A stretch of DNA of 64,000 bases from a virus (IMGVR_UViG_3300034407_003088:1-64000); one strand, 5' to 3'; counted from the stretch's first letter, positions 18,784 through 44,900 are shown. Numbers and translations: made by a program. The notes: generated from the letters alone by a model not told the origin.

Positions 18784-18791
18784 AATTTTTC

Positions 18792-20976: not shown

Positions 20977-21070
20977 ATCTATAATAGTAAAACTATTTAA
21001 ATGCCACCCTTGTTTTATAGTCTAAAGTAGTGGGTTAGGACTTTCTCCGAAGAGTGTTAGCACTACCTGA
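20952..21070 (-). ncRNA. Putative cis-regulatory 5' leader RNA (riboswitch/attenuator-like)
   Basis: GTAGTG/CACTAC stem enclosing CTC-TTCG-GAG, then a GGCAT..ATGCC hairpin that overlaps the terminator 5' arm; downstream of a TACTTATA motif. Confidence 0.5.
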
Positions 21071-21076
21071 CTTATA

Positions 21077-21084
21077 TATAAGTA
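21077..21084 (-). promoter_or_regulatory. TACTTATA variant of the putative promoter motif
   Basis: Immediately after the sulfotransferase stop codon and just upstream of the structured leader. Confidence 0.5.
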
Positions 21085-21870: not shown

Positions 21871-21871
21871 A

Positions 21872-23353: not shown

Positions 23354-23454
23354 TTATAAATAAACGGGTCTCTTTTTTTAATCTCACGAAGTCTCTTTTT
23401 AAAAAGATACCATCTTTTAATTTTATTGTAATATTTTTTTAATAACTTTATCAT
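23350..23454 (-). CDS. 34-aa basic microprotein (MIKLLKKYYNKIKRWYLFKKRLREIKKRDPFIYK)
   Basis: Manual translation; fills the gap exactly with ATGA overlaps at both ends. Confidence 0.75.
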   Translation of the reverse strand: MIKLLKKYYNKIKRWYLFKKRLREIKKRDPFIYK

Positions 23455-26401: not shown

Positions 26402-27848
26402 TATCTATACTCACGAAGTTAATTTTTGCTTGACTTTCTTGTGATTTTATTGTATATTTTAAAGTGGATAATCCATCTTCTTTATAATCATCCATACCTG
26501 TTCTAACAAAATTAAAATATCGTATCTGATTATCTCTTGAACGCCAATCTTTAAATTTGGTTTTTGACCAACCATTCTCTTTATGGTCTAAACAGGTAAA
26601 TTTTCCATTTCTTCTTGTTGGTAATGACTTTGTTTCACCTATCACAAGTTCTTGTTTTTTTCTAATTCCACCAACTATTTCACCATTATGATTATACTTT
26701 GTTTTATCCATAACTCTTTCATTATCTATATTTTCAAAATCATATGCACAAAATAAATCATCAACAAATGAATATTCATTTTTTGGTTTAGTAACATCCC
26801 AAGGAACACCATCATTAAATAATTGTCTAACTGCTCTTCTGTCTACGGTTCTTCTCCACATACTAAATTGTGCAATGTTACCTTCAAACCAATTATTATC
26901 TCGTATTGATGTTGAGTCTACACATCCTAAGAAAAACTTATCACCTTTTATTTCTCTTAGATTACCAAAGTAAGATGTAGGTGAGTTTTGAACCTCTTCT
27001 CCATTAATATACATTTGTAATGTTTTTGTTGGTGCATCAACACAAACTACAATATGATTCCATTGTTCTGACATCTTATGACTAACCACCATATACTCAT
27101 CATGATTCATATTCCACACACCATATTTATATTGTTGTGCACTTGTCCAACATAATCCTGTATGATATCCTGGTTGTGCAAGTATATGAAATTCATCATA
27201 ATGTTTTTGATTATCAATCGTTAATAAGTCTGATGGTTGTACCCAAACTTCAAATGAATACGAACCTCTTGTTAGAATTTTTTGCCACAATGGTGAAATA
27301 GTTATATCTATATAATCACCCTTTTTAAAACTCATTGACCTAACAAAAGGATTTGTTAAATGTTGAGTAGATACAATATCTTCCTCTAAAGGTAGACCTG
27401 TAGTTCTACATCTATATAACAAATCATCATCTTCAAATCCCCATCCCCAATATTCATTTGAGTATCCATTAATTAATTCAAAATGTTGAATAGGAAACAA
27501 GGTTACCCCACCAAAGTATTCAGGATATGGTAATTTATATTTGTTGTTTGATAGTCGTGTTGATAATTGAGTTGGTCTATCTACCCATGAATAGTCACAT
27601 GAATTATCTTCAGGTAACATATCCACATCGTGAAAGCACACATAATCACACTTGGCGTTTTTTGCCAGTGTGAATCCTATATTACATAACCATCCACGAT
27701 TAAAAGGTAATTCATTATCTTGATTTACAACAAATACTTCATAATCATCAATAGAAGTTTTTTCAAGATGAGATTCTATCTCTGGTATAAATCTTGATAA
27801 ATGTTCTTCTCTATCTCGGTATGGTACAATTATACCAAGTTTTGCCAC
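26394..27848 (-). CDS. GT7 with inserted LamG/ConA-like domain (copy 2)
   Basis: IIVPYRDREEHL, FNRGWLCNIG, FHDVDMLP, YFGGV, YWGWGFEDDDL, LamG (WNHIVV, FEGNIAQFSMW), GKFTCLDH, DGLSTLKY. Confidence 0.9.
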   Translation of the reverse strand: MAKLGIIVPYRDREEHLSRFIPEIESHLEKTSIDDYEVFVVNQDNELPFNRGWLCNIGFTLAKNAKCDYVCFHDVDMLPEDNSCDYSWVDRPTQLSTRLSNNKYKLPYPEYFGGVTLFPIQHFELINGYSNEYWGWGFEDDDLLYRCRTTGLPLEEDIVSTQHLTNPFVRSMSFKKGDYIDITISPLWQKILTRGSYSFEVWVQPSDLLTIDNQKHYDEFHILAQPGYHTGLCWTSAQQYKYGVWNMNHDEYMVVSHKMSEQWNHIVVCVDAPTKTLQMYINGEEVQNSPTSYFGNLREIKGDKFFLGCVDSTSIRDNNWFEGNIAQFSMWRRTVDRRAVRQLFNDGVPWDVTKPKNEYSFVDDLFCAYDFENIDNERVMDKTKYNHNGEIVGGIRKKQELVIGETKSLPTRRNGKFTCLDHKENGWSKTKFKDWRSRDNQIRYFNFVRTGMDDYKEDGLSTLKYTIKSQESQAKINFVSIDNE

Positions 27849-28159
27849 TATTTTTTACTACCAAATATACTTTTTAGTACACCACCATCGTTTTGTGATT
27901 GTTGAACAGATGGTTGTTGTGTCTGTACAGGTGGTTGTTGACCAACAGGTCGTTGAACTGGTTGGTTTGGTTGTGTAGATGAGTTTAATCCCATTTGATA
28001 CATTTCCCATAACTTCCAATCAATAGCTTCCAACTTTTCTTCTATACTTGTCAATGCCTTTAACAAAAGTGCAAAATTATCACTACCTGTTAATCCACTA
28101 TCAAGTGCATCTCTTGCATCTTTGATATCAGTATTTTCTGTTTTCTTCTTTGTTGCCAT
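27848..28159 (-). CDS. Hypothetical protein with Q/P-rich tail
   Basis: 103-aa ORF with an AGGAG RBS, IDWKLWE helix and QPVQ repeats. Confidence 0.7.
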   Translation of the reverse strand: MATKKKTENTDIKDARDALDSGLTGSDNFALLLKALTSIEEKLEAIDWKLWEMYQMGLNSSTQPNQPVQRPVGQQPPVQTQQPSVQQSQNDGGVLKSIFGSKK

Positions 28160-28169
28160 GTTTATCTCC

Positions 28170-29639
28170 TTAGGCTTGTATTGTTAATATTGAATGTTTA
28201 TCAAAATATTTTTCGGTTTTTAAAACACGAAACCTACACTCTTGTAAATCATTCGTTACTTTATTACCTATTAACTTTGTTAAAATTTTGTAATTATTTT
28301 GAGAGTTAGAACCTTCATAATTTTCTTTATTTAATTTATTATAATTTGTACCTATATAACCATAATTTCCTCTACTTCTTATAGGTAAATATAACTCATC
28401 TCCCTCTTTCACTATGTTTTTTTTAGGTGAAACAGGAATAGTTAAAATCATATTATTACCATTACCACTTTCATCCCAAATCATATTTTTATATCCTGCA
28501 CTAAAATCATAATAACCAGATGGACATTCAATTGTATACTCATTGTTAAAATTACCATTTTTATAAATTTTATTTAATGATATTTCATTTAAAAATATAT
28601 CATAAAAACTTAAATCTCCAATTGAGATATCACATCTGGCCTGTGATGTGTGTGTTTCTTCTGTTGCAATACCAACATAAAATGGTGTTTCTAATGGATA
28701 TTTTTTAATTGAACTTTTAACTACCACACTACTACATAATAATCCATTTACATACATGTTAGCAGTCTTATTATCTTTACTATAAGATAATCCTACATGT
28801 ACCCATTCACCAATGTCTATTGGATAATCACCTACTCTAATATATTCATTTTTAAAAGTCCAAAGATTTGTACTCAATGTGAAATGTGAATCTTCTTCAT
28901 TGTATAAAAATTTTATACCTGAATGATAACCTGGTCTACTAACTGCATATCCTTCCTTTACAACACCTTTATTTAATCTGACCCAACATGTGATGGTAAA
29001 ACTATTATTCATAACATCCTTCATTGAACGAGTATTAGTCTGTATTTTTGTATAATTGTTGTAATCTATATCAATTGTATTTACTGATTTTGATTCTTCT
29101 ATTGTTCTTATAGTAGGATAATTTAATTGGTTCATTTTATATAATAAATGTAAATCCTCGTAACCATCACCCCAAAAATTATTATAAAACCCACCTATGT
29201 TTTCAAATTCTTTTTTAGTAAACATCAACGCACCATTAAAAAAAAACTTACTTGGTAAACTATACCCTTCTGGTACAAAATCAGGATGAATACCAAATGA
29301 TATTTCATTCAGAGAACCAACTAAACACTTAGGTCTTTCATCAAATGAGTAGTCACATTCATCATCTAAAGGTATAAAGTCACTACGATGGAATACAACA
29401 TAATCCCAATCATAATCAATGTTGTATATATTTTTAAAGACTTTAGTACCACTTAGAAATCCAACATTATATAACTTACCATAATTTACTAAATTTTTAT
29501 TTGATTTCAAATCAACTAATATAATTCTATATTCTACATCTTTGTCTTTCATGAACTCATCAAAATGTGCAACAAAGTTTTCATTATATTGTTCATTAAA
29601 ATCTGAAACTATTAATAATTTATTCATGACGATAATCAA
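28170..29639 (-). CDS. Degenerate GT7-LamG protein (copy 3)
   Basis: NYGKLYNVG, FHRSDFIP (DxD lost), FWGDGYEDLHL, LamG (WVHVGLSY, MYVNG). Confidence 0.75.
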   Translation of the reverse strand: MIIVMNKLLIVSDFNEQYNENFVAHFDEFMKDKDVEYRIILVDLKSNKNLVNYGKLYNVGFLSGTKVFKNIYNIDYDWDYVVFHRSDFIPLDDECDYSFDERPKCLVGSLNEISFGIHPDFVPEGYSLPSKFFFNGALMFTKKEFENIGGFYNNFWGDGYEDLHLLYKMNQLNYPTIRTIEESKSVNTIDIDYNNYTKIQTNTRSMKDVMNNSFTITCWVRLNKGVVKEGYAVSRPGYHSGIKFLYNEEDSHFTLSTNLWTFKNEYIRVGDYPIDIGEWVHVGLSYSKDNKTANMYVNGLLCSSVVVKSSIKKYPLETPFYVGIATEETHTSQARCDISIGDLSFYDIFLNEISLNKIYKNGNFNNEYTIECPSGYYDFSAGYKNMIWDESGNGNNMILTIPVSPKKNIVKEGDELYLPIRSRGNYGYIGTNYNKLNKENYEGSNSQNNYKILTKLIGNKVTNDLQECRFRVLKTEKYFDKHSILTIQA

Positions 29640-30477
29640 TACATTTTTGTTTTATGTCTTCCCAATAGGAATACCAGTTATTATCACTTAAATCCTCTAT
29701 CATAAAATCTTTTATATTTATTCTAAAGTTATTATCTAATAGATATTCATACATTTTCTTATACTCAAAGTAATAAGAGTAATCTTGTTTTATCATTGTT
29801 ACTTGTCTTAGTCTTTCAAAACAATCAAAGTCCCACTTCATATGATTAACTATTACAAAACACTCATCAACAGGATATTTCTTAGGATGATTCCATCTAT
29901 CACCATATGTGTCTTGACCATCAATGATGGCATAATGTTGACCTGGTGTAACATCAATATATCCTTTACTTAATACTATTTTGTTAGGACATGCATTTGA
30001 TATTGGTTCTCTAAAAAATCCACCCAATGGAAACTCTTCCCATATATTTGAGTCTCTATTTATTTTAGGAAATGTCCCATCAACTCCCAATCTATCAAGA
30101 AAACCACCACTTACAAAATCCCAACCATTCTCTTCACAATCATATATTATCTCTTCTAATGGTTTTGGATACTCATGAAACTCATCATCATCTGAAATAA
30201 CCCACCAATCATTTGGTTTTGTTCGTTTAGTCTCGTTATACAAATGTGTTACATGATTCCAATCATATGGTGGGTGTTTACTAATATTATATATTTTTAA
30301 TCCATAGTGACTTAAAACATCTTCAACCTCACCCACGAGATTTTTATTCTTACCATTGTCATATACATTCACAAACACATCATCAACTATATCTTGATAG
30401 TGACCAATCATATGATATAACATATTAGGATTATGACCACATACCGTAACTAAATTTTTGGGACTTTTACTGACCAA
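29620..30477 (-). CDS. GT2-like (GT-A fold) glycosyltransferase
   Basis: WWVISDDDEF acidic motif, GGFLDRLG, PNKI, PGQH, NHMKW. Confidence 0.7.
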   Translation of the reverse strand: MVSKSPKNLVTVCGHNPNMLYHMIGHYQDIVDDVFVNVYDNGKNKNLVGEVEDVLSHYGLKIYNISKHPPYDWNHVTHLYNETKRTKPNDWWVISDDDEFHEYPKPLEEIIYDCEENGWDFVSGGFLDRLGVDGTFPKINRDSNIWEEFPLGGFFREPISNACPNKIVLSKGYIDVTPGQHYAIIDGQDTYGDRWNHPKKYPVDECFVIVNHMKWDFDCFERLRQVTMIKQDYSYYFEYKKMYEYLLDNNFRINIKDFMIEDLSDNNWYSYWEDIKQKCIDYRHE

Positions 30478-32750
30478 CTGGCTCTCCTACAATTTTCCCA
30501 AAATTCTGCAAGTTCAGGAAATGTTTCCATAAAATTTTTATCTCTTCTATTATCATATTCATTGAAAAAATTAAAAAAGTCTCCACGATTCTTCACCAAC
30601 CAATCAACATCATCCAATGGTGACTCCGCATAATCAATCAATCGTCTAAACTTTTCTATTTCAAAATCATAGAATCCACTATGTCCATGACCATAAATGT
30701 GTAGATATTTATCTTCACGATATTTTTTCATCAACTCAATATCTTCCTTCATCTTATCAATCCATTTAGTAGGTAAGATTCTCAATGATTGGTGTGATGG
30801 TTGTCTTAAATATGCAACATCTAATAAGATTGCATAATGTCTGTATCGTTTACCATTGTAATGTTTTCTCTTTAGATGAAATACACCTTCAATAAGTTTA
30901 TCAAAGTTTGGTGCACTTAATGCATTATAAGTTGACATAATTGTAACAGATGCCTTTGGAACTTCTGTTAAGAATCTGTCTATGTTATACCAAAACTTTT
31001 CAAAGTCTAATCCATCACGAATATATTCTGCCTGGTCTCCCCATGATTCTATACTTGTATAAACTGAATAATTCCAAACCAAATCATTCTCTGTAATGTA
31101 TTTTGATTTCTCAATAAACTTATCAAACAAATCATCAGGTGGACAAAAGTTTGAATTAATACTAATCTCTAATTCTGGATTAATATCAGGATTTTCAATA
31201 ATATAGTCCAAGACCCTAAATGTTCCCTTATGAAGAATTGGTTCACCACCAGTAATTCTCAATGTATGTAGGTCAGGATATAAATCTGGCCACCATTTCC
31301 AAAATGCTTGTTCATATGGATTGAATTGTTTGTAAGGTATCGGCATCATATCTGCTCTTTTCAACCAATCTGTATTATTGAATAATCCACTTGTTGGGTA
31401 TGGGCCTTTCTTTTCTATCTCTTGTTGCCATCTTGATGAACTCTTCACATCACAATAACTACATGCAAAGTTACATTGATTACTAAATGATATCTCAACA
31501 TAAGGTGGATTGGTATCTTCTCTCCAATCTGAATCTCTAATCTTTCTAAAGTCTGGTAATGCCCATGCCTCTGCACTCTTCATATGTCTGTCACTAAATG
31601 CATCTTTATTTGCATCTTCTACTTTCCAACAATAATCACATTCTTTAGGTCTTCCACCCTCTAACATCATTTTTCTTTGAAGTTTTTTAAACTTCGTATT
31701 ATGTAGTGCAGATTTATTTTCTTCTAATTCCTCTAATGGTATTTTATGTGGAACAGGATGGTGACAACTATGAGTCATACCATTCTGTAATAATAATGAA
31801 ACTTGATTCCATTTTGCCAAACAGAATCCTCTACCGACTTTATTTAATTCTCTTTTAAGAATATTAATTTCTTTTAAACCATGAAGACTTTTTTCTTTAA
31901 AAATATCAATATCTACTTCTTGTTTTTGTGCCTCTTCATCTTTTATTTCAAATTGTTCCAAATGAATTCTCATCTTTAATTCTTCACTTGGTTTTTTCAA
32001 TTGTCCTTTTTCTTTTAGTCTATTTATTTCATTCTCAATATAAGGTGATGAATGTTTTAATAAATGATATTTGTAAGTTTCAAAATCAACATCAAGACCT
32101 TGACATATTTCCATAAACAGAATATGTTTCATTATATCAGAATTTTTGATATCATTTCTCTCTCTTTTCATTCTACTTAATTCTGATTCTGTATCTTTTC
32201 TTAAATCAGAGTTCAACATTTGAAGTCTTTTTCTTATTTCTTCTTTACCATACTCTGCATCTTTATCCATGTTCTCATACCAAACATCGGTATTTCTGTT
32301 ATACTTATTTATAATAACAACTCGTTGTTCTAATTCTTGGTATGGACTTAAAACTTTATTAGATTTTTTTATTTTATTAATTTCTCTCTCAACTTCTGGT
32401 GAAGTATGTTTTAAACATTGTTTTATCGCAACTCTATACTCAAGTTCTTGTGTAACATTTGTAATCTTTGCACTATCAGGAACATCGTGATAATATCTAT
32501 AGATTTCCTCATCAATATATTCATTTTGATATTTTTCACACTCAGATAACTTAATTAAATAATAACACTCTTTATCAAATTGTTTTGTGAAGAAATCTTT
32601 ATCTTGTGCACGATATAAATCCATTCTTTTTGAAACCCACTCTGTTGAATGTTGTTGTCTGATTTCATAATCAAATTGTTTTTCGGGCCATGCATTCAAA
32701 TGGTTAAACTCTTTAATACCCTTAACTTCTATTTGTACAAAATTGTTCAT
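30450..32750 (-). CDS. N-terminal twitch-domain radical SAM protein (copy 2) with an approximately 290-aa helical N-terminal extension
   Basis: FCLAKW...LQNGMTHSCHHP, RPKECDYCW, FSNQCNFACSYC, ITGGEP, INSN, D.RR..NF..TFPEL. Confidence 0.88.
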   Translation of the reverse strand: MNNFVQIEVKGIKEFNHLNAWPEKQFDYEIRQQHSTEWVSKRMDLYRAQDKDFFTKQFDKECYYLIKLSECEKYQNEYIDEEIYRYYHDVPDSAKITNVTQELEYRVAIKQCLKHTSPEVEREINKIKKSNKVLSPYQELEQRVVIINKYNRNTDVWYENMDKDAEYGKEEIRKRLQMLNSDLRKDTESELSRMKRERNDIKNSDIMKHILFMEICQGLDVDFETYKYHLLKHSSPYIENEINRLKEKGQLKKPSEELKMRIHLEQFEIKDEEAQKQEVDIDIFKEKSLHGLKEINILKRELNKVGRGFCLAKWNQVSLLLQNGMTHSCHHPVPHKIPLEELEENKSALHNTKFKKLQRKMMLEGGRPKECDYCWKVEDANKDAFSDRHMKSAEAWALPDFRKIRDSDWREDTNPPYVEISFSNQCNFACSYCDVKSSSRWQQEIEKKGPYPTSGLFNNTDWLKRADMMPIPYKQFNPYEQAFWKWWPDLYPDLHTLRITGGEPILHKGTFRVLDYIIENPDINPELEISINSNFCPPDDLFDKFIEKSKYITENDLVWNYSVYTSIESWGDQAEYIRDGLDFEKFWYNIDRFLTEVPKASVTIMSTYNALSAPNFDKLIEGVFHLKRKHYNGKRYRHYAILLDVAYLRQPSHQSLRILPTKWIDKMKEDIELMKKYREDKYLHIYGHGHSGFYDFEIEKFRRLIDYAESPLDDVDWLVKNRGDFFNFFNEYDNRRDKNFMETFPELAEFWENCRRASWSVKVPKI

Positions 32751-33454
32751 TTCTTCCTCACTAAAGTTGTTCCTGTAGAGAATGGTAGTGGTGTTTTTGA
32801 TTTAAAATCAAAGAAATCAAATACTTCCCATTTCTTACTCTTTTTAAGTTTCTTGATTAACTTAGCTGGGCCTGACATATCATCAAACTTCTCACCTTTT
32901 GGTACAATTAAACTATCGTAATATTTTTCATCTGTATCATGAATACTGATTATACCATTATCACTTAATCTTTCACTATATAATTCAAAATCTAATTCAA
33001 CTTGTTCAAATGAATGACCTGCATCAATGTGTAAATAATCTATTTGAATATCTTTTCTTAAGAAAAAGTTATAATAGGCGTCATCTGTAAGTGCCTCTAT
33101 GACTTTTGGTTGAAATGTTTCTACAAAATAACTTTCATCGTTCCAATCAGGTTCACCATTAACACCATTTTTTGCATCAACAACATATGTGATACCATAT
33201 ATATCATCGGTGAAAACATCTAATTCTTTTAAATCCCATTGTGCAGCAATCATCATTCGTGGAACAAATCCACCACCACTTCCTAAACAAACACAAGTAC
33301 GAGACTTCATTAAGTATGGTATTGTATAAAACAATAAACCACCACCCAAGTAAATGTGTGTTGCACCATGTGTATCTCTGTATTTTACTGGTTCTTTTTC
33401 ATCACCATTATGTAGTAATGAATCATATATCCAGCCTTGATTTAATAACCCCAT
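32747..33454 (-). CDS. Class I SAM-dependent methyltransferase (Methyltransf_24-like)
   Basis: VCLGSGGGF, YVVDA, IDYLHIDAGHSFEQVELDF, GIISIHDT. Confidence 0.85.
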   Translation of the reverse strand: MGLLNQGWIYDSLLHNGDEKEPVKYRDTHGATHIYLGGGLLFYTIPYLMKSRTCVCLGSGGGFVPRMMIAAQWDLKELDVFTDDIYGITYVVDAKNGVNGEPDWNDESYFVETFQPKVIEALTDDAYYNFFLRKDIQIDYLHIDAGHSFEQVELDFELYSERLSDNGIISIHDTDEKYYDSLIVPKGEKFDDMSGPAKLIKKLKKSKKWEVFDFFDFKSKTPLPFSTGTTLVRKK

Positions 33455-33470
33455 AATAAAACCTCTTTGT

Positions 33471-33478
33471 TATAAATA
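33471..33478 (-). promoter_or_regulatory. TATTTATA intergenic motif
   Basis: In the 29-bp gap upstream of the methyltransferase, followed by AGAGG and ATG. Confidence 0.55.
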
Positions 33479-33483
33479 TAATC

Positions 33484-34176
33484 CTACCATCTCAAACGAT
33501 TATAAAATGTTGCAACATGGTCTGAAAAATAAAATCTTTTTTCACATCCGTATTTCTCTTGGTCTTCTTTAAATGCATTTTGATAAAACCAATAGTCTGC
33601 ATCATATAAATCATTATCTTTTGTTGGTTTTGTAGGATATGGTTTCCAAACTGAATGATGAAATACTACTTGTCCACTATCACATGTTGAAGGTCTTATA
33701 TAAGTACCAGTATCATCATGTATAATCTGTGGATGATTATATCTACTTTCTCTTGATAAACTAACTTTAAATTGTTCACCTGTATCATGACCAAGAACTA
33801 TAAATTTAACTTTATCGGTTAATGATGGATTTTGTCCATTTAATATTGGATAAAGTACGGTATATAAGTCATAATGTAAAACATTATCATCATCAACAAG
33901 TAAAACCCATCCTTCATTTACATTTTCCATTAATGCATTTTTACCTTGATTTCCCCAACAACCACATTCTGTTTCTGTAAATGAATACATATCATCAAAT
34001 AAACTTGATTCAATATCCGACTTACTACAAACTAAAGTATCAATAGAAACATGCCATCTTATATCAAACATTTCATCATTAACTAATGGTTGTTTAAAGA
34101 TTGAATCTCTAATTAAATGTAAATTGTGTGGATTCAATCCACAAGGTGTTCCTATATTTATAACTATCGGTTTCAT
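33484..34176 (-). CDS. GT-A fold glycosyltransferase-like protein
   Basis: IGTPC, WGNQGKN, WVLLVDDDN (DxD), DSGQVV, ADYWF, TFYNRLR. Confidence 0.7.
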   Translation of the reverse strand: MKPIVINIGTPCGLNPHNLHLIRDSIFKQPLVNDEMFDIRWHVSIDTLVCSKSDIESSLFDDMYSFTETECGCWGNQGKNALMENVNEGWVLLVDDDNVLHYDLYTVLYPILNGQNPSLTDKVKFIVLGHDTGEQFKVSLSRESRYNHPQIIHDDTGTYIRPSTCDSGQVVFHHSVWKPYPTKPTKDNDLYDADYWFYQNAFKEDQEKYGCEKRFYFSDHVATFYNRLRW

Positions 34177-35660
34177 TATGGTGCTGAATTTGTTCCTTTA
34201 TTATGTACTAATATTCCATTTACAAGATATACATCAGAAGGTTCTACATCAAGATTAACAACTTCAACTTCACCTTCTACTCTTGATATTTGGTCAATTA
34301 AAATTAATGATTTATCTTCACCCAATAAAGATTGTCCAACTTTACAATTACCTGCCTTCATCCATTTCCATACATTGTCTGTATCTTTTATTAATAATTC
34401 ATGTTCACCAGTAACTTTAAGTTCTGAGTTAAATCCTGTAGTATTGTTTACACCAAATAAAACATAATAATGTGATGCATAATCAAAATAATAATTATCA
34501 ATTACTGCAGTACTTGATTCAAATCCATCTATTGATGATGTTGTCCAAGTTGACCATTCTTCATATCCTAAATCCTCATCAGGTAAAGTTTGAATATTAA
34601 ATGTATTTACCTCATCTCCAATATCTAAGTCCTCTATGTTTTTATCACCACTTGGTGTGGATACTTTTGAACCTGGTAGGAAACATGCAACCGTTTGTCC
34701 ACCATATGTATCTTGTACCTCTACAACCTTTGTTACTGCGGTGTTATATCTTGTGGAATGGTCATTGAATCCATCCGATTGTCCATCATCATTATACTTA
34801 CCAGATATTGTTACGGTTTGGTCATTGTATTGTGGCCCTGCCCACTTCTTTAATGTAATATGGTCAATAAAAATATTACCTGCACTACCTGTAAACTCTA
34901 ATCTTAAATCTACTGAAGTGGAACCACTTGTATAAAAGTTATCGGTAAATAAATTCCAATTGTTTGTATTGTTTGCACCATTTCTACCAAATGTATGTGA
35001 GTTACTTTTTAGTACAACTTGTATATTTCTATCACCAGCACTTGTATTATAAAATCTTCCTTGAATTTCATAAGTAGAATATGCATCTACACTAATAGTT
35101 TGAGTCAATGCACCATCGTCAATCTGTGCTGCAAACGAAGAACCACTACCTGCAGGGTCTGCATTTGGTGTTCCACCACTATAAGTGTGTTTCGTAACTG
35201 CATCTACAACTTCCTTTGTCCATGTTCCTGGTGTAGAAAGATTTGTCCAAGTTGCAAAATTACTATTACCAACAAGATTACTACCAACTGCAGTTTTTAA
35301 ATCCGATATGGTTCCTGCACTGAATGTTCTTTGATAACCACTATCTGTTGATAAACTAAATGCATCACTTTGATTTGTAGTCCATGTAAAGTTATCACTA
35401 CGAGAACCAATTTTACTTAAGAATTTACTACCAGCATTTTGAAAAGTCAAGTTATAATTCTCAGATGTTTGTTCATCAACATAGGCGAAACCATTTAATG
35501 TATTATCCACACTATCAATTGAAAACTCAGACATCTTAGTTTGTCCACCACCACCTGCACTTGTAAGTGAAGTGTTTGCGGTCGTATAACTTGAGATAGA
35601 CGAACTAACTGCTCTTCTTAGTTTTCCTAATGATAAGTTTTGGTTTATTGTTGTACTCAT
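34176..35660 (-). CDS. Virion-type protein with CBM-like jelly-roll and C-terminal Hint domain
   Basis: CBM4/9-like segment (NLVGNSNF..W...FIDHITLK). Hint about 34200-34685: CFLPGSKV, IEDLDIGD, VTGEH, VNLDVE, ILVHN followed by K. Confidence 0.85.
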   Translation of the reverse strand: MSTTINQNLSLGKLRRAVSSSISSYTTANTSLTSAGGGGQTKMSEFSIDSVDNTLNGFAYVDEQTSENYNLTFQNAGSKFLSKIGSRSDNFTWTTNQSDAFSLSTDSGYQRTFSAGTISDLKTAVGSNLVGNSNFATWTNLSTPGTWTKEVVDAVTKHTYSGGTPNADPAGSGSSFAAQIDDGALTQTISVDAYSTYEIQGRFYNTSAGDRNIQVVLKSNSHTFGRNGANNTNNWNLFTDNFYTSGSTSVDLRLEFTGSAGNIFIDHITLKKWAGPQYNDQTVTISGKYNDDGQSDGFNDHSTRYNTAVTKVVEVQDTYGGQTVACFLPGSKVSTPSGDKNIEDLDIGDEVNTFNIQTLPDEDLGYEEWSTWTTSSIDGFESSTAVIDNYYFDYASHYYVLFGVNNTTGFNSELKVTGEHELLIKDTDNVWKWMKAGNCKVGQSLLGEDKSLILIDQISRVEGEVEVVNLDVEPSDVYLVNGILVHNKGTNSAP

Positions 35661-35663
35661 AAT

Positions 35664-35671
35664 TATAAATA
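35664..35671 (-). promoter_or_regulatory. TATTTATA intergenic motif
   Basis: Fills the 11-bp gap, 3 nt before the ATG of the Hint protein; no SD is visible. Confidence 0.5.
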
Positions 35672-36679
35672 TTACTCGTTGTAGATTCGTAGATATTTTT
35701 CAACCCATTCTTCTTTATTATCGTATTTTTTTAAATTTTTTCTCAACCCTTCAAGTAAAGTTTTTCTATGTAATTCTGATAATGTTTTTATCTCTTCTAC
35801 ACATTTATCAAACTCTTCCTTTGTGGTTGCTCTAAATGGATAATGCATATCATCACACCAATTATGTGGTAAAATTGGTAATTTACCATAGTCAATTGCC
35901 TCAAAAATACTATATCCAAAAGGTTCATTGAGATGTGCAGAATGACTTATTCCCCAATCATCTCTATCTAAAAACTTTTTTAAGAACTGATACTTAAATT
36001 GATAAAATCTTGTATCAGAAAATTTAATTTTTAGTTTCTTTTCCCACTCTTGAACATCAAAGATATCGGTGAATGCAAATGATTTATGTCCTAATAGGAA
36101 GTGTGGGGCCTTTCTCGTTTCCATTCTGGCGGCAAAACCAATAGTGTCATTCATCACGATATCTTTGTTTCGTTCAAATTCATAATAATTCGGTATATCA
36201 ATTAAATCAAAATCTTTATGTAATGGTGTTTTTTGTACACCTATCCAAATCTTGTGTTTTGACCATTTCAAAACATCTCTTTCCCAATCTTTTGATGAGG
36301 CAAAGTGCATTAATCTCGGTAGATTTAAAGTAAACCCTGCCTGTAAACTTAAGTCTAAACTAACATGAACTACATTAGAATGTATCTTATCACGATGTTC
36401 AGATATTAATTTATGTGGTGTGTAGTATCCATGAAGTATATTGATTCTTCTACACTCTTTTATGTATTGTTCAAACTTGATTGGGTCATCACTTTGCCAT
36501 ACCACCTCAACATCAGTATCAAACTCCACATTTAAATCATCTATACGATTACGATGTATCAATAGTTTACTTGGATATGTAAGTTTTGGACTAACTTCTT
36601 TTAACCATTTGTTAACCCAAACATCACTTCCACCATAAACTAATGAACCACCACCTGTACTATAATATACATCAAACAT
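35672..36679 (-). CDS. GT4-family (GT-B) glycosyltransferase
   Basis: YGGSDVWV, IGFAARMETRK, EPFGYSIFEA (EX7E signature), GKLPI. Confidence 0.85.
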   Translation of the reverse strand: MFDVYYSTGGGSLVYGGSDVWVNKWLKEVSPKLTYPSKLLIHRNRIDDLNVEFDTDVEVVWQSDDPIKFEQYIKECRRINILHGYYTPHKLISEHRDKIHSNVVHVSLDLSLQAGFTLNLPRLMHFASSKDWERDVLKWSKHKIWIGVQKTPLHKDFDLIDIPNYYEFERNKDIVMNDTIGFAARMETRKAPHFLLGHKSFAFTDIFDVQEWEKKLKIKFSDTRFYQFKYQFLKKFLDRDDWGISHSAHLNEPFGYSIFEAIDYGKLPILPHNWCDDMHYPFRATTKEEFDKCVEEIKTLSELHRKTLLEGLRKNLKKYDNKEEWVEKYLRIYNE

Positions 36680-36687
36680 AATAACCT

Positions 36688-37743
36688 CTATTTTGCGTGA
36701 ACATTATGAGTCATATATCCTTGTGCAAAATATACATCATAAGGTTCACAATTTAAATTAACAACCTCTACTTCTTCCTCTACTTTTTGTATAGTGACAA
36801 TTTGTACTTCTGTTAAATCGTCTCTTATTAAATAGTCATCATACTGAACTAATTCATCAGTTCTTTTATATTGATAAATATATCCACTACCCTCTTCACC
36901 TCTACTGATAGCACTTTTAACTAACCATGGATGTTCTTCTGTAGTATTGATAATACTATTGATTCTATAATAACTTTCATAATAATCAAAGTATAAATGT
37001 TTTACACTTCCTGTTACTATTCTTGTGTCTGATATATCATCATCACTCCACTCACCCCAAGTGTCTGTAGAGTCAAAGTCTAATGGAATATCATCATTGT
37101 GATATGCCACAATAGTATCACCTACATTTACATCTTCAATATTTTTATAAAAAGTATTACCCTTTTCATCTTGTAAAGTGATAGAAGTACCAATCAATAA
37201 ACATCCACCACCACCATAAGTGTCATATACTGCACCATAAAATTCATCAAAGTGTATTGGATGTTGTGCACTACCACTTACTGGCCCACCTTGGTCATAA
37301 TCAAAGTTAGGTTTATTGTCTGTTGCATCAGGTGAAATATTAACATTCTCACCTGCGTCATTTACACCACCTACTGAAGCAAAGTCTTGATACAAATCAT
37401 GAATATCTGAGTTTGCACTATTGACTGCAATACCCTTTTCTTGATTCATATCTGATATACTCATGGAAACATTTTGACCAATAACAGGAATTAACAATGC
37501 ACCATGTCCTGGTGCATCCAATATACCTAATGTTGTGGAACCACTTGAGTAGTTCTCACCATTATTAGTGATGTTTGTTGAGACGATAACACCACTACCA
37601 TTACTTGTACAAGTACCTGCAAAACTTTGTCCATGTTTTGATTTAGTTCTTGCATTTAAAGTATAGGTTTGTGAACTACCATACCCACTACCACCATCGG
37701 TAATATTAATACTTAGTATTTTCCAACCACTTTGAAGTGCCAC
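36688..37743 (-). CDS. Virion-type protein with N-terminal GSGY fibre module and C-terminal Hint domain
   Basis: SINITDGGSGY / ITNNGENY modules. Hint about 36703-37203: CLLIGTSI, IEDVNVGD, TTEEHP, VNLNCE, MTHN followed by V. Confidence 0.85.
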   Translation of the reverse strand: MALQSGWKILSINITDGGSGYGSSQTYTLNARTKSKHGQSFAGTCTSNGSGVIVSTNITNNGENYSSGSTTLGILDAPGHGALLIPVIGQNVSMSISDMNQEKGIAVNSANSDIHDLYQDFASVGGVNDAGENVNISPDATDNKPNFDYDQGGPVSGSAQHPIHFDEFYGAVYDTYGGGGCLLIGTSITLQDEKGNTFYKNIEDVNVGDTIVAYHNDDIPLDFDSTDTWGEWSDDDISDTRIVTGSVKHLYFDYYESYYRINSIINTTEEHPWLVKSAISRGEEGSGYIYQYKRTDELVQYDDYLIRDDLTEVQIVTIQKVEEEVEVVNLNCEPYDVYFAQGYMTHNVHAK

Positions 37744-37745
37744 TT

Positions 37746-38327
37746 CTATAACCTCTTTTTAATTTCATCTAATTCTTTTTTCAAATCTTCTATTTGTTTT
37801 TGTTGGTCATTAATACCTTGAACCAATAAAGATACAACCTTATCATATTGTATTGCTTTATATCCATCTTTACGAGTAGTTACAATTTCAGGTAATACTT
37901 GTTCAACCTCTTGTGCAATCAGTCCAATATCATGTCCCTTTTCTCTTTCAACGATATCTGCCTTTTCATTCCAATCAAACTCTACTCCTCGTAGTCTACT
38001 GATTTTAAATAGTGAATCCTCTATAGGTCTGATGTTATCTTTTAATCTTATATCTGAAGAATAGTAAGCTGTTAGATTACCAGTAAATCTACCTGCACCA
38101 TCAACATCCAATGCAACACCAGGTGAAGTATCATTAATACCCAAACCTGTATCTGAGATTGTTATTTGTGTTGATGTGGCATTATCATCTATCCCAAGAG
38201 AATTGAATTTCTTGATATTGATGTTATCAAAAGTAATAGTACCAGTTAGTGCATCATATAAATTAGTTATATGAGCCGTTGTGATTGTATTACCACTTGA
38301 TATTCCTGATTTGTCTAAATTAGCCAT
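37746..38327 (-). CDS. Short tail-fibre protein with peptidase S74 intramolecular chaperone
   Basis: YSSDIRLKDNI, LRGVEFDW, IGLIAQEVEQVLPEIV, YDKVVSLLVQGI plus coiled coil. Confidence 0.92.
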   Translation of the reverse strand: MANLDKSGISSGNTITTAHITNLYDALTGTITFDNINIKKFNSLGIDDNATSTQITISDTGLGINDTSPGVALDVDGAGRFTGNLTAYYSSDIRLKDNIRPIEDSLFKISRLRGVEFDWNEKADIVEREKGHDIGLIAQEVEQVLPEIVTTRKDGYKAIQYDKVVSLLVQGINDQQKQIEDLKKELDEIKKRL

Positions 38328-38334
38328 TTATATC

Positions 38335-38928
38335 CTAAACCTGTATTATTATTTCTTTACCATTTCCACCATTACTACCATTATTTCCATTTGATGCATT
38401 AGAGGCAGATGGGCCAGCTTTACTTCCACCAGTTCCACCTCTTCCTCTTCTTGTAGAAATATTACCATTTGAAGTAGAAGTACTATAACTTGCCGTATTA
38501 CTTGTACCGACACTTGATACAGGTGTAGTGGTTATTATTACGATAGCACCACCTGTACCACCTCCACCTCCTCCACCTCCAGCGGATGAGGCTATTGTAG
38601 ATGCAGTTCCATTTGTAGATGTACCACCACTTCCACCTTGTGCAGAGTTACCTGGTATAATACTTCTTGTTACTGCACCACCACTCAATCCAGCACCACC
38701 ATTTAAAGGAGTACCACTTACACTACCATCCATGGCACCACCACCACCACCTCCAGATGGGCCTGCACCTGGTGATAATCTACCAGTAGTATCTTCAGAA
38801 CTTAATACATCTCTCATCATCTGTACTAAGTGTGGGTCAATTACATTTATTCTTGTGGTTCCAGATGCTGCAGATGAGGCACCACCAGCACCACCACTAC
38901 CACCTATATTTCCAGTTGTTACTGCCAT
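38335..38928 (-). CDS. Glycine-rich virion/fibre-associated protein
   Basis: GGGGGGGTGGAIVII and GNNGSNGGNG motifs like the C-terminus of the adjacent giant protein; own AGGAGA RBS. Confidence 0.75.
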   Translation of the reverse strand: MAVTTGNIGGSGGAGGASSAASGTTRINVIDPHLVQMMRDVLSSEDTTGRLSPGAGPSGGGGGGAMDGSVSGTPLNGGAGLSGGAVTRSIIPGNSAQGGSGGTSTNGTASTIASSAGGGGGGGGTGGAIVIITTTPVSSVGTSNTASYSTSTSNGNISTRRGRGGTGGSKAGPSASNASNGNNGSNGGNGKEIIIQV

Positions 38929-38955: not shown

Positions 38956-41900
38956 TTATGGTAAAAGTTCTTCACCATTTCCTCCATCACCACCTTTACC
39001 ACCATCGGCCTTGAATCCATATCCAGTATTCGCATTATTAACAATTTTTCTTGAGGCTATAAACATTATACCACCTGAACCACCAGCACCACCACCGCCA
39101 CCACCAGTTACATCTGCTGTACCACTATTTGGGCCACTATTTCCACCTTGTCCACCATCACTACCACTTACTAATGTTGTTGTTAAATTTGTTGAAACAC
39201 TTTTTCCTTTAGCACCACCAGCACCACCAGCACCACCAGCTTTACCAGCACCACTCTGGCCAGCAGCTTGTCCATCAGTTCCATTTTCTCCACTGGCATC
39301 TATTAAACCTGTGGTATTAATTGTTAATGTATCGTTTACATATAATCTAAATCCATTTGTGTATAAAGTTTTACCATTATCTACTATTAAGTTTGTAACA
39401 TAAACATCCCTCACTAATGCAAAGGAATTACTTCCGTCACCTTTTATAATTTCAGCACTATCATCTTCTGATGTGATACTTGTCTGACTAGCTAATGTTA
39501 TTGTGGTTGAATTGTCTGTACCTGCACCGAACAATCTACTTCTTTCAAGTAAATAATCTTTTGATTCAATATTACCCTCTGGTGTGAATCTAATTTGATT
39601 AGAACCAGTCATAAATGTTGCTTGTCCATCTGGTAATAATGCATAACCACTACTACTGATTTCTAAATTATTTCCTGAACTACTGATGTATGCGTTATCA
39701 CTTCCTTTTGAACCTAAGAAAAATGTAGATGAACTCATAATCAAATTAGTACCATCCCACGATATTCTATGTCCATTACCTTCACCAGCTCTGAAGTGTC
39801 CACTACTATTTAATAAGACTCCTGTACCACTCGTTAAGGTTTGTGATGCTGCACTTGCACCATATATAAGTGTTGAATTATTCATTCGTAATGTTGTACT
39901 ACCACTTAAATGGAAATCATCTGTAACTAATTTAAGTGTGTTGGTTCCATCAAATGAAATCCTTGAACCTGTAGAACTACCAACTAATAATCTACCTTGA
40001 CCATCTGCATAAAATCCATTACCACTATCAAAGGCAGTTGGTGGTGATACACCTAATGAAACTTTACCATTATTAGTTGCACTATCCATAATGATAGTCC
40101 CTGCATCTAATGCAAAAGTATCGGATTTTAATTGTAAAGTGTTACCAACTGCATCAAACTTGATTAAATTATTGGCATCTCCTCGTACTAAGAAGTCTCC
40201 AGTACCATCCATGAAGATACCTTTATTAGTTCCACTAACACTTGTGTTTAAGGTTGCACCCATTGCAAATACTGGTGTACTTGCAGTGGAATCTAATTTG
40301 ATTTTATTTGTACCTGTTGTTAATAAATCTATATCTGTAGTTTTTATACTTAAGGTTGAACCATCAAAGTTAACATGGTTTGCACTTGTGTTTCCAAATA
40401 AGAATGTTCCATCACCTTTTAAGAAAATACCACTACCTGCAGTTGCACTTTCTGGTGGTGTAGAACCAAGTGCAATTGTTCCAACACCAGACGAGGACGC
40501 AATCAATGTATTTGTGGTTAAATTAAAATCTCCTGTTACTATTTTTAAACTATCATCTCTACCATATGCAAATGATTGATAATTACTTTCACCGAAGTTT
40601 ATTGTTGCATTGGTATCAACTGCCAAGTTCGTAGAGAATAGGAATGCACTTGCACTTAATGCACCTGCAGTAGAGACAAAGAAGTCACTACCACTTAACT
40701 CACCACCATCAACTTTGATTATTGGAACTCCACCTGTTCCACCATCTGCATCTAATACAATCTTACCACTACCCAAATCTATTTTTTGGTTTGTAGAACT
40801 TATATCAAGAGCTGCAGTATCTAATTCAAATTGTGTTGTTTTAATGTTAAATGTACTACCACCATCAAAATTAATATGATTACCACTTGTATCACCAATT
40901 AAGAACTTACCTGTCCCATCCACATAAAAACCATCACCATTATCATATGCAACTGGTGGTGTTGCACCTAATGCAATCACCCCACTATTAGATGATGATA
41001 CTCTCATTGTTGAAACATCTAAATCAAGTTGTGTTGTTTTGATGTTAAATGTACTACTACCATCAAAGTTAATATGATTACCACTTGTATTACCGATTAG
41101 GAATTTACCTGTCCCATCTACATAGAATCCATTACCATTATCATATGCAACTGGTGGTGTTGAACCAAGTGCAATTACTCCTGAATTAGATGATGATACT
41201 CTCATTGTTGAAACATCTAAATCAAAATTAGTTGTTCCAATCTCAATATTACTACCACTTATTTTTGCTCGTGTAGTTCTTAAATCTAAATCACCACCAT
41301 TGAATTGTAAATATTTATTGGCACCTGCCTTGAAGATAAAGTCACCATCACCCTCAATGTATACACCTTTATTAGTTCCACCTGTATCTGTTACACTTGA
41401 AACACCATTACCAACTTGGATTGCACCATTACCTGAACCATCAAGGTTAATCGCTCTATCATTACCAAGACTCATTGAGGCTTGTGTGGATGATATCTCA
41501 ATACCACTTGATGTTACTTCAAGTCTTGAAGTTGATACTTGTAAATTATCTACAGCAAGGTCAAATGTACTACCAGTCATTATTAAGTAATTGGTTGGAT
41601 TTCTATATATAGAAATTTCACCACTACCACTCATGAATATTCCTTCAGTTCCAAATGTTGTTGCAGATGAACCAAGTGCGATTTTTCCACCACCATCTGT
41701 TTTAACATCAAATGTGGATGTATCTACATTTAAGTTTTCTGTTTTTACTTCTAAACCACTTGAATCAAATCTTATATATTCATTTGAGTCTTTTTGTAAA
41801 TTAAATTCTCCACTACCACTTAAGAATATACCATTACTTGATAAGTTTGTTGGGATTACACCACCCAATCCGATACTACCGCCTGCAGTACCTTTTAATT

Positions 41901-44900
41901 TTATTCCACCATCATTATTTGGGTCACTATCGTGACCTAAACTCATTGATGCTTGTGTTGATGATATATGTAGGTCTGTTGCATCTAATTCAAATTTTTG
42001 TGATTGTATTTGTATATCACCACTACCATCATGTGATAGGAAATTGGTTCCTGAACCTACTTTAAATTGTCCTGTAGTATACCAATAGTTATGGTCATTA
42101 ACACTAATACCATCGTTACTACCATTTACATCAGTACCAATTATAATCTTATTACTTGCACCAACTCCTGTATGTACAAATAACTTACCAGTAATAGAAC
42201 CTGTAGTTGCAGTTATACCACCAGTAAAGTAACCATTACTTGTATAAATACCAAACCCTGCATTTGCTGGTGTGATACCAAACTCTGCAAACTCACTAAC
42301 ATTCACTCCACTTAAATCACCAACACGAGCTTTCAAATCTACATCATAAATCCCACTACCTGTTCTTTCTACAATATCAATGTATGGTGTGGTTACATCA
42401 TTTGGATTTGCATTTAATTTAATGTATCCACTTCCTGATGTATTTGTACCAGTTCCACTTACATAACGACCAGTACTAACAATTACTTGTCCTTCTTCAT
42501 AGTCTTGTGCATTACTTGCCAAGTCTCCTACAAAGGAACCTTGACCACCTGCACCCCAACTTCTTGAAACATAAAGTTTACCTGCAAAATTAGTAGCACT
42601 ATCAGGAAAATCTCTTGAGGCACTTTGAACTAATACATACTCTGTACTAAATCCTGTTGCTCCTATTTTCTTTATTTGTAAAATTTCACCATTTACAAGT
42701 GCTGCATTTGTCAATACACCTGATGAATTAAATCCATTATAACTACCTGTAAATCCAGTTGCATTTACTACCGACATAGTTGAGTAACTTGCAGATATTA
42801 CACCTGAACCAGTTAATGATGTTGAGTTTGCAACATATAATTGTCCACCAACGGCATTTACGGTTTCTTTCTCAAAGACTGCCGTAGATAATGTACCACG
42901 AATTCTTGCATTTTCAAACTCTGCAGTTCCATTACCCTCTGCAGATATTCTCCAACCTTTTAGATTAGATGCAAAGTCTGCAGTTTCTATTGTTCCTGTA
43001 CTTCTTATAAATAAATTATCAGAGAATATATTACCTGAGTCTATTGTCCACCCTGCAATCCTATTACCCTCTTCACCAAACTTAACTAAAGTATTACTAT
43101 CGGCAGTTCCACTTCCATCATAGATTTTCATCCCATAATCATCACTACCACCCGCATCACTTGTTTCACCAATTCTTATATATTCATCACCACTATCGTT
43201 AAATACTTGTATTCTTTTTGTAGATGTATTAATATCAATATTAGTTGTATCAATTTGTAATTGGTTTGAAACTATTGTAAAATCAGCACCATCAAATTGT
43301 ATTCTATTACCATCATGTATACCAATTAAAAGTTTACCATTACCATCTGCATAGAAACCTGTTCCACTATTGTATGCAGTTGGTGGTGTACCACCTAATG
43401 CAATAATACCATTGTTGGTTCCACTATCTAATATCAATGTTCCTGCATCTAAATCAAAATTTTCTGCCTTTATATCTAAATCTGCAAATGATTTTCTAAT
43501 GTAGTTAGTGGCATTTGTATATGCAAGAAAGTCACCAGTACCATCCATATAGATACCAGCATTTGTACCACTACCAGTTGTGTTTGGTGTTGCCCCTAAT
43601 GCTATCTGACCACTCTTTGTTCCACTATCTATTACTAATGTAGAAGTTGCCAAGTCAAATGTACCTGCCTTGATATCAATACCACCACCATGGAATTTTA
43701 GATACTCTGCATTTGCACCACCTTGTTTAATCAGTACATTACCACTTGAATCCACATGGAATCCTGTAGATGCATCTGCGATATCAGTAGCACTTGCCAA
43801 TGTACCTATACTGATTTTATCATTTGATATTTCTAAGTTTGTTCCTGTTAATGAGAATGTACCTGATTTTATTGTTACATTACCACTATTGAATTGTAGG
43901 TATTCAGCGTTTGCACCACCTTGTTTAATCAATACATTACCACTTGAGTCAACTAAGAAACCTGTAGATGTATCTGCAACATCGGTAATAGCACTTAATG
44001 TACCTATGCTAATTTTATCATTTGATATTTCTAAATCTGTTCCTGTTAATGAGAATGTTTCAGATTTTATTGTGAGTGCAGTACCTATCTTTCTTACTAA
44101 GTTTGTTGCATTACCTTGAAAATTAAAATCACCACTACCACTTAATAATAATCCATCACTTGTTAGATTTTGTGGTATGGTATCACCCATGGCAATTGTT
44201 CCACCACCTGATGATGAGATAAACATTTTAGGTGCACTTAATTCAACATCAGTTCCATCAAATTTAAAAAATCTATCACTACCATCTCCAATATAACCTC
44301 TCGGTGTTCCACTATTATATTCTAATTGAATCCCTTGATTTCCGAATGTGGTATTGTTTATTGTAATGGCCTTTGTTGCAGAATTTAAACCAACATTTGT
44401 TCCACTTTTAATCTCATCCGAATCAATTGTAAATCCACCAATTTTACCACCATCAAATAAAACTTTTGAACCTGTAATTTGTCCACTTGATTTTAATAAT
44501 AAGTTATCACCTGTATCATTTATTTGTGTTGAAGTTAATTCAAAACCACCAATTTTACCACCATCAAAAAATACACTTGAACCACTTACATCACCGTCTG
44601 CCTCAACTTGGAAGTTAGAACTTGAGATAAAATAACTATTACCTGTTGCTCCACCATCTAAGTGAAATGATGTTCCTTGTTGTAATTTTGTTCCACTTAT
44701 ATCAAATCCAGCAATTTTACCACCAGTAAATAATACATTTGAACCTGTTATATCTCCATCTTGTTTTACATTAAATTTTGATGTAGAGATAAACATATAT
44801 GAAGCACTATCTTGACCACCTATTGTTGGTGAACCACTAATGAATATATTGGTACTACTAAATGAATGTGAATCAGTAGTGAATCCACCAATCAAACCTG

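Follow-up and report, generated by a model that had tools for sequence, protein, structure and literature searches.

What does a Hint domain do at the C-terminal end of a phage tail-module protein, and does a glycosyltransferase (GT) gene that lies between two such proteins take part in it? These questions are raised by IMGVR_UViG_3300034407_003088:1-64000, a stretch of 64,000 nucleotides (hereafter the window) from the start of a 79-kb viral contig in IMG/VR, ~41% complete by estimate. Two of its genes, here called HintA and HintB, encode proteins that end in Hint domains and bracket a GT gene. Judging from the sequences and their relatives, we consider it probable that both are fixed, active domains of the bacterial intein-like (BIL) class which excise themselves during maturation, with a lysine of the C-terminal flank possibly resolving the thioester. 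An earlier note on the same DNA had proposed a Hedgehog-like transfer of the N-terminal domains to a lipid, glycan or partner protein.

Two tail-module proteins with C-terminal Hint domains

The two genes and their elements, with Hint flanks numbered from the domain outwards (-1 before Cys1, +1 after the terminal Asn), are the following.

34176..35660, minus strand: HintA gene, open reading frame (ORF) of 494 amino acids; match to PHROG 38766 ('virion structural protein') at E 1.5e-18; 292 relatives; conserved N-terminal module, carbohydrate-binding module (CBM)-like beta-sandwich (~residues 130-275), pre-site module DGFNDHxTRYNT...VExQDTYGG, Hint domain, 7-residue tail
34698..34712, minus strand: HintA DTYGG pre-site motif, residues 317-321, four residues before Cys1
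34200..34685, minus strand: HintA Hint domain (type-A BIL-like), Cys326-Asn487, with the insert PDEDLGYEEW...YYFDY between blocks A and B
34179..34199, minus strand: HintA C-flank stub KGTNSAP (+1 to +7)
36688..37743, minus strand: HintB gene, 351 amino acids; Gly/Ser-rich N-terminal domain (1-180), Hint domain, tail VHAK
36703-37203, minus strand: HintB Hint domain, Cys181-Asn347
36691-36702, minus strand: HintB tail VHAK

Re-translation at these coordinates (↓ marks the ends of the Hint domain) reads QDTYGGQTVA↓C in HintA, with Cys326 at 34683-34685, TGEH at 34401-34412 and VHN↓KGTNSAP before the stop codon. In HintB it reads DTYGGGG↓C (Cys181, 37201-37203), TEEH (36931-36942) and THN↓VHAK, again followed directly by a stop. 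This agrees with the earlier description, in which each protein has a C-terminal Hint domain that includes Cys1, TxxH and a terminal His-Asn (HN), followed by tails of 7 and 4 residues with K or V at +1, and the DTYGG motif before the catalytic Cys is borne out in both. By their motifs, both domains appear catalytically complete, and a thioester at Cys1 is the expected intermediate, as the earlier note held.

The Hint regions of HintA and HintB are paralogous (BLASTP 29% identity, E 3e-15, ~185 residues). A fold search matches the N-terminal part of HintA to carbohydrate-binding beta-sandwich modules, and Pfam gives a weak match to DUF642. Both are probably fibre-associated or receptor-binding tail-module proteins.

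Placement among the Hint families

A profile built from six Hint domains, taken from the window locus and two related loci, scores E 1e-8 against 2LWY, a BIL domain of C. thermocellum, and E ~1e-7 against Tetrahymena BIL2, with classical inteins scoring more weakly. The AlphaFold model of HintA, computed from a 36-sequence alignment, has a mean predicted local distance difference test (pLDDT) score of 76, with most of the Hint part at 80-95. Foldseek superposes this model on 2LWY with a template modelling (TM) score of 0.88 and a root-mean-square deviation of 2.0 A, followed by BIL2, many mini-inteins and Hedgehog 1AT0. The Hint fold itself is recovered at probability 1.00 in matches to >30 solved BIL, intein and Hedgehog structures.

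Knowledge of type-A BILs goes back to 2003. HintA and HintB display their characteristics: a Cys1 nucleophile (Cys326 and Cys181), a terminal His-Asn, no Cys, Ser or Thr at +1, and no homing endonuclease, the domain measuring 162-167 residues with no extra domain. They also share with 2LWY the TxxH motif and residence in variable, non-housekeeping proteins (PMC4031507, PMC7765530), whose exteins differ among orthologues by the presence of CBM-like, FN3-like and LamG-like domains. The phage domains differ from 2LWY in being encoded by phages within tail-module proteins, in being fixed rather than sporadic, and in an acidic, Trp-rich insert of 20-25 residues that separates blocks A and B. A further difference lies in the invariant Lys+1-Gly+2 (HintA) or V-H-x-K (HintB) that opens a C-extein of often 4-9 residues. 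On the profile and the predicted fold, type-A BILs are the closest relatives, Hedgehog domains and canonical inteins being more distant by both measures.

Cleavage by type-A BILs occurs at either terminus, and their flanks can also be ligated when the amine freed by Asn cyclisation attacks the thioester (PMC4031507; PMC7765530); for the characterised members, cleavage products predominate (PMC4031507). In Tetrahymena BIL2 the thioester is resolved by a Lys side chain, yielding a Lys epsilon-isopeptide (PMC8616854). The statement of the earlier note that the two domains cannot splice therefore holds for the canonical class-1 route, which is excluded by the lack of Cys, Ser or Thr at +1, but overlooks type-A BIL ligation by aminolysis (PMC4031507) and the Lys isopeptide of BIL2 (PMC8616854). 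BIL2, from the BUBL system (6Y75/6TMM), is the second-best match by fold and profile and likewise has C1 and a terminal Asn in its Hint domain. It differs in being eukaryotic and flanked by ubiquitin-like domains, with the acceptor Lys in a folded C-extein or a foreign protein, and in that its Lys reaction is established (PMC8616854), whereas that of the phage domains is a proposal.

Other Hint families are more remote. Hedgehog Hog/Hint (1AT0, Foldseek E 6e-7) resembles the phage domains in fold, in its C-terminal position on a functional N-domain, in thioester chemistry and in Gly/Ala-Cys-Phe at the cleavage site. It has a sterol-recognition region after Hint and no terminal His-Asn, whereas the phage proteins have HN and a stub with no extra region. 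Assignment as a Hedgehog Hog domain was rejected, only 4-9 residues following Hint and HN being present and invariant. A canonical class-1 intein was rejected on the K or V at +1 and on a site that is C-terminal or lies between variable domains of a tail-module protein. Pretoxin-HINT (PF07591) shares a weak Pfam similarity (E 2e-4, below the cut-off) and the use of Hint to release a neighbouring domain; it precedes a C-terminal toxin, while the phage Hint precedes a 4-9 residue stub or an FN3-/LamG-like domain. It was rejected at 21.9 bits against a cut-off of 27.7, with no downstream toxin domain in the window proteins.

Conservation and the lysine of the C-terminal flank

The 292 relatives found for HintA are of near-constant length, and conservation was scored over 120 retrieved sequences or over a spread of 36; 133 relatives were found for HintB and 120 of them scored. 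At least 90% of the 120 HintA relatives keep YNTAI-K-VEIQDTY-G..ACFLPG, PDEDLGY..W, DY, VT.EH, EV.N.DVEP.D.Y and LVHNKG...P. Over the 36 sequences, C326, T417, E419, H486, N487, K488 and G489 are invariant, as are D317, T318, Y319 and G321 of the DTYGG motif, with H420 and P494 kept in at least 90%. All 120 HintA relatives have K at +1 and show the tail pattern HN↓KG...P. Cys181 of HintB was likewise scored as invariant in relatives. In the HintB family the elements conserved at this level are YGGxGC, PLDFDxEDTWxxW, TxEHPF and HNVHxK; 117 of the 120 end in HN plus a tail, which in 117/117 consists of V-(H/Y)-x-K plus 0-5 further residues. The Hint domain is kept across relatives that are ~40% to 97% identical.

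Among the elements that the earlier note had singled out, the DTYGG-like pre-site and the adjacency to the GT gene are conserved. Both window proteins carry the acidic W...YFDY insert, a family-specific, largely kept element, but its WxxW form is kept in the HintB family and not in that of HintA: in HintA relatives the first Trp, W369, alone is invariant.

In a wider search at E <= 0.001, the six-domain profile matches 12,366 cluster representatives, of which 100 fall below 1e-30. Among the best 148 matches, from proteins of 119-3399 amino acids, 79 end in HN plus <=25 residues, with K at +1 in 32 and T there in one only. The residues at -1/-2 are Gly in approximately half of the wider Hint set, often as poly-Gly linkers, and a D-T/S-Y-G/N motif is present in a subset. 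A D[ST/A]Y[G/D/N] pre-site pattern recurs in orthologues with long C-exteins and in more distant relatives.

The tail shows a strong preference for Lys. Among 62 proteins with an aligned Cys1, related sequences whose Lys counts are not independent events, 61 have Lys in the tail, compared with 14.4 expected from their own composition. The lone tail without Lys has an earlier HN↓KGSETSP junction, so that Lys follows HN in all 62. Removal of the K+1 and VHxK types leaves 30 diverse tails which have little in common beyond Lys: it is present in 29 of them, usually at +4 or +5, against 7.8 expected, and Arg is found in 3/30. Windows of equal length drawn at random from the proteins in question (2000 trials) contained Lys in a mean of 7.5 cases and never in more than 15. 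Because Lys is kept and Arg rarely replaces it, the pattern points to a need for Lys rather than for positive charge, and so to a role of the amine. The short tails are not inert: at 4-9 residues they are conserved, always with Lys, and in many orthologues a full C-terminal domain takes their place behind an identical HN↓KG junction.

Orthologues with long C-exteins and variant members

In a set of 93 Hint domains parsed next to a GT gene, HN is followed by <=10 residues in 29 and by >30 residues in 61. The long versions are HintA orthologues, as they share the N-terminal LSLGKL.RA module and the pre-site module DGFNDHAT.YNT...V.D[ST]Y. Their HN is followed by KGGN(T/S)(F/H) or KGAATAPIP and then by a domain which, read from sequence, is FN3-like or LamG-like. 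Examples with HN↓KG continue into a LamG-like domain of ~220 amino acids (L055:5006-6679), an FN3-like domain of ~96 (L083:5008-6282) or another domain of ~140 (L025:4996-6435). Since the KG junction precedes the long C-exteins of orthologues, the 7-residue tail in the window is the conserved first segment of a C-extein reduced to a stub. HintA of the window carries a CBM-like domain before Hint instead, the domains being shuffled around a constant Hint. Hint-less alleles were sought in viral contigs with LamG-like and FN3-like C-exteins and none was found, Hint being in the same ORF in 27/27 and 28/28 cases, all of them close relatives.

Similar domains occur in distant phages. In the uncultured 484-kb phage LR756508, a 432-amino-acid fibre-like protein has a C-terminal Hint with Cys1 and HN↓KH and lies directly before a 39%-identical GT (L008:7632-8930). 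Jumbo phages of Erwinia and Dickeya encode a collagen-like tail-module protein with a terminal Hint of the same kind, ending in VHN↓TDIVAKAEKT, and no GT is adjacent. One such protein, gp105 of the cultured Erwinia phage pEa_SNUABM_35 (L003:5023-6465), is annotated as 'virion structural protein' and consists of collagen-like Gly-X-Y repeats followed by Hint. Its +1 residue is Thr, so that canonical splicing to a 10-residue stub is chemically possible. A proteomics paper on Erwinia jumbo phages does not mention Hint or the homologous protein and is silent on the absence of Hint from virions.

Some members depart from the common ending. A 1333-amino-acid FN3 protein (L011:2098-6099) has His-Gln instead of His-Asn (...LVHQ↓GIEDLK...), and an upstream Hint protein (L022:3264-3968) ends exactly in ...GYLCHQ, with no tail and a Cys before HQ. 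Tandem Hint arrays with up to 7 or more junctions are found in the metagenomic proteins P0242, P0243, P0253, P0257, P0258 and P0261, where the joints read HN-K-(G)0-4-CF and the 'extein' between two Hints is therefore Lys or Lys plus glycines only. If Lys amines resolve thioesters, the arrays might shed tiny peptides, or become cyclised or concatenated.

The glycosyltransferase between the Hint genes

35672..36679, minus strand: GT-B fold, GT4-like glycosyltransferase, 335 amino acids; N-terminal YYSTGGGS...GGSDVWV; EX7E motif E252-E260

The gene between HintA and HintB had been described as a GT4 enzyme. The 335-amino-acid protein has no match at E <= 0.1 in Pfam, PHROG or NCBIfam, a profile search of PDB sequences returned nothing, and out of its 520 relatives none of the 120 listed has a precomputed Pfam domain. 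Its AlphaFold model (pLDDT 91, predicted TM score 0.88) has a two-Rossmann GT-B fold, and the top Foldseek matches are all GT-B, mostly GT4: tll1591 (E 3.5e-10), BshA, PimA, MshA, BA1558, HepE and WbnH. Within the EX7E motif, EPFGYSIFE, residues E252, P253, F254, G255, Y256, S257, I258 and F259 are invariant in 35 sequences, and E260 aligns as E or Q. The protein thus has the GT-B fold, N-terminal Gly-rich loop and EX7E motif of retaining GT4 enzymes such as tll1591, BshA, PimA and MshA; it differs in being too diverged for Pfam and NCBIfam and in its position, always directly upstream of a KG-type Hint protein. The description as a GT4-like glycosyltransferase is supported as a prediction from fold and motif, but not by family models.

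Directly downstream of the GT (42-99% identity), a gene for a Hint with the HN↓KG junction follows in 80/80 IMG/VR loci, whereas an upstream Hint protein of the VHxK type is present in 11/74 GT loci. The order S74 fibre-HintB-GT-HintA-methyltransferase-radical SAM-GT7-LamG is kept in loci where HintA is 46-55% identical and also in loci where the GT is 44-47% identical. The adjacency of GT and Hint may be no more than conserved synteny of one phage lineage; the whole downstream glycan island is kept as well. The tie between the Hint domains and the GT4 product that the earlier note had suggested does not find support in it.

Proposed mechanism and alternatives

We propose that, after folding, Cys326 of HintA or Cys181 of HintB would undergo an N-to-S acyl shift, by which the N-terminal functional domain becomes thioester-linked. 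Asn487 or Asn347, at the end of the Hint domain, would cyclise and so cut the bond to the short C-flank. Resolution of the thioester would release Hint, the nucleophile being water or the amine of the invariant C-flank Lys. By the amine route, the stub, or the whole FN3-/LamG-like domain in orthologues, would end up attached to the N-terminal domain. Hint would serve as a built-in, single-turnover maturation module, functionally comparable to the self-cleaving S74 chaperone encoded next door. Like the Peptidase S74 chaperone of phage fibres and endosialidases, it would be a C-terminal, self-cleaving and discarded maturation domain; fold and chemistry are unrelated, as S74 is a trimeric chaperone with a Ser-Lys dyad and no thioester. 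The GT-B enzyme, as part of a large phage glycan island, would most likely glycosylate virion or host-surface targets rather than supply a thioester acceptor.

The reading of HintA and HintB as active BILs is favoured because their motif set and conservation match type-A BILs, which are also the best match by fold and profile. Also in its favour are the universal C-flank Lys, the KG-type Hint downstream of the GT in all 80 viral loci, the retention of Hint in all 55 C-extein-matched loci, the self-cleaving S74 fibre directly upstream and the collagen-like Erwinia jumbo-phage protein with a Hint of the same kind. Several points weigh against this reading. Single-sequence Pfam matches to Hint_2, PT-HINT, Intein_splicing and Hint are all under the curated cut-offs, although the PHROG 38766 match, the BIL profile match and the superposition on 2LWY outweigh them and settle the Hint call. 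Cleavage in every member is deduced from motif conservation alone, and HN and the stub could owe their conservation to structural packing instead of chemistry. The Hint of LR756508 has SASQ where the block B TxxH is expected, and some members may be inactive or mechanistically different. The status of 'virion protein' rests on gene position, domain types and the PHROG label. Finally, this reading does not explain what is gained by encoding a domain whose one effect is its own removal.

Self-cleavage by hydrolysis only, with Hint as a removable pro-domain or folding aid and the Lys and stub without a chemical role, is a sub-case of the active-BIL reading with a different product, and we regard it as possible rather than probable. 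It is favoured by the predominance of cleavage products among the characterised type-A BILs (PMC4031507), by related tails that consist of a single Lys and leave nothing else to ligate, and by the adjacent S74 domain as a precedent for a discarded C-terminal domain. The Lys route is favoured by the retention of Lys in particular, for which Arg is no substitute (R in 3/30 against K in 29/30 tails), by the invariance of HN and KG, and by the intact FN3-/LamG-like domains behind the junction in orthologues, which hydrolysis would sever from their anchor domain.

Tentatively, the window domains could represent a subclass of 'Lys-resolved BILs', in which the side-chain amine of the invariant Lys that follows shortly on the terminal Asn attacks the thioester at C1, after which Asn cyclisation frees Hint. 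The N-domain would be joined to the stub or to the FN3-/LamG-like domain by an isopeptide, or by a peptide bond after Asn cyclisation. This would be a natural, cysteine-free protein splicing that matures phage tail proteins, and the always-adjacent GT-B might act on the same proteins.

Resolution of the thioester by an external nucleophile, as in Hedgehog or BUBL, is improbable in our estimate. Candidate acceptors would be lysines of a second virion protein, or glycans or lipids produced by the GT and the glycan island, and the product would be a covalent anchor for the N-terminal domain. Thioester chemistry permits such a transfer, as BIL2 conjugates its N-extein to Lys of other proteins (PMC8616854), and the Gly-rich flanks at -1 resemble the GG end of ubiquitin. 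The adjacency of GT and Hint, in 80/80 viral loci and in the distant LR756508, would fit as well, but it falls within a single syntenic lineage whose methyltransferase and GT7 genes are no less conserved, and the Erwinia phages have the Hint protein without an adjacent GT. No adduct-recognition region follows Hint, and HN and the stub are conserved although N-side transfer alone would not need them: Hedgehog Hog domains do without HN. Type-B BILs likewise lack it (PMC4031507). Transfer to a lipid or glycan in the Hedgehog manner, as put forward in the earlier note, is unsupported: no sterol-recognition-like region follows Hint, the insert lies within the Hint fold, and BILs are closer by fold and sequence.

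It is very unlikely that Hint is retained without processing, as a structural or binding module whose motifs are kept for fold stability. The LR756508 relative without the block-B His and the family-specific acidic, Trp-rich insert, which could serve as a binding surface, would suit such a role. However, hundreds of relatives show little or no variation at Cys1, the block-B Thr, the acidic residues of block F and the terminal HN, the block-B His is kept in at least 90%, and poly-Gly linkers at -1 are typical of cleavage sites. Hardly credible is the persistence of degenerate selfish inteins at gene ends: Hint domains are mobile elsewhere in phage genes, but here a homing endonuclease is absent, none of the 80 GT-linked or 55 C-extein-matched loci has a Hint-less allele, both diverged paralogues keep Hint, and a stop before Cys1 would drop a short-tail Hint without obvious cost, yet the domain is kept at ~40% to 97% identity.

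Gene string and phage lineage

The window is AT-rich and every gene lies on the minus strand. In order of transcription, a 2915-amino-acid fibre, a 197-amino-acid Gly-rich protein and a 193-amino-acid S74 fibre are followed by HintB, the 335-amino-acid GT-B, HintA and a 230-amino-acid protein, and beyond these by a Methyltransf_24 enzyme, a 766-amino-acid radical-SAM protein and then the glycan island. Neighbouring genes abut or overlap by a few bases and so form a single gene string. The features around the Hint genes are listed below.

38956-47703, minus strand: repetitive fibre, 2915 amino acids; many repeated modules; Gly-rich end similar to the 197-amino-acid protein
38335-38928, minus strand: Gly/Ser-rich protein, 197 amino acids; long spurious proline-rich antisense ORF
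37746..38327, minus strand: short tail fibre, 193 amino acids, with a C-terminal Peptidase_S74 self-cleaving intramolecular chaperone; Pfam PF13884 at E 7.5e-18; many PHROG tail-fibre families
33484..34176, minus strand: 230-amino-acid protein whose start codon overlaps the HintA stop; no Pfam match
32747-33454, minus strand: Methyltransf_24 enzyme
30450-32750 and 23451-24905, minus strand: two long radical-SAM proteins
24896-29639, minus strand: three GT7 (beta4GalT-like) enzymes fused to LamG_3 domains
21872-23353, minus strand: NodU/Nol-type carbamoyltransferase
21085-21870, minus strand: sulfotransferase
19986-20978, minus strand: NDP-sugar epimerase/dehydratase

The S74 fibre lies directly upstream of HintB and has a counterpart at the same position in three related loci (L004, L006 and L009). 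The 230-amino-acid protein is probably a GT-A (GT2-like) glycosyltransferase, a lead taken from its language-model neighbours, which are viral clusters, some with Glycos_transf_2. The glycan-modification island follows the tail-fibre and Hint genes directly (17000-34176, minus strand) and is kept in related loci. Its content suggests glycan chemistry on the virion or the host surface.

The SbcC-like gene of the window has its closest cultured relative in Microcystis phage Mel-JY01 (37.5% identity), followed by uncultured LR756508. A T4-like identity was rejected, as the best cultured match of this gene is Mel-JY01, at that identity only. Homologues of HintA and of the GT-B gene were drawn from Tara, JGI and ENA marine metagenomes. 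The distance of the closest SbcC-like relatives (37.5%) and the marine source of the homologues indicate an uncultured phage of a poorly sampled marine lineage.

Significance of the Hint module

Public databases already label some phage proteins as 'Hint domain containing'. A literature search for C-terminal Hint on phage tail proteins and for Hint, thioester or isopeptide chemistry in phages found no paper on this module or on the flank-Lys rule. Specific to this locus are the two diverged paralogues that bracket a GT-B gene, the adjacency of GT and KG-type Hint in 80/80 loci, and a stub that constitutes a minimal C-extein. The profile reaches 12,366 cluster representatives in total, and curated libraries miss both HintA and HintB at their own thresholds; for many phage tail proteins, the annotated mature length and domain content are therefore probably wrong. 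A compact, self-contained ligating or cleaving Hint that is independent of Cys+1 would be of interest to the intein field and to protein engineers, and for amine resolution of the thioester the sole natural precedent that we found is Tetrahymena BIL2. If active, these domains would give phage tail and fibre proteins a second route of self-maturation, chemically unlike S74 and, since it proceeds via a thioester, open in principle to ligation.

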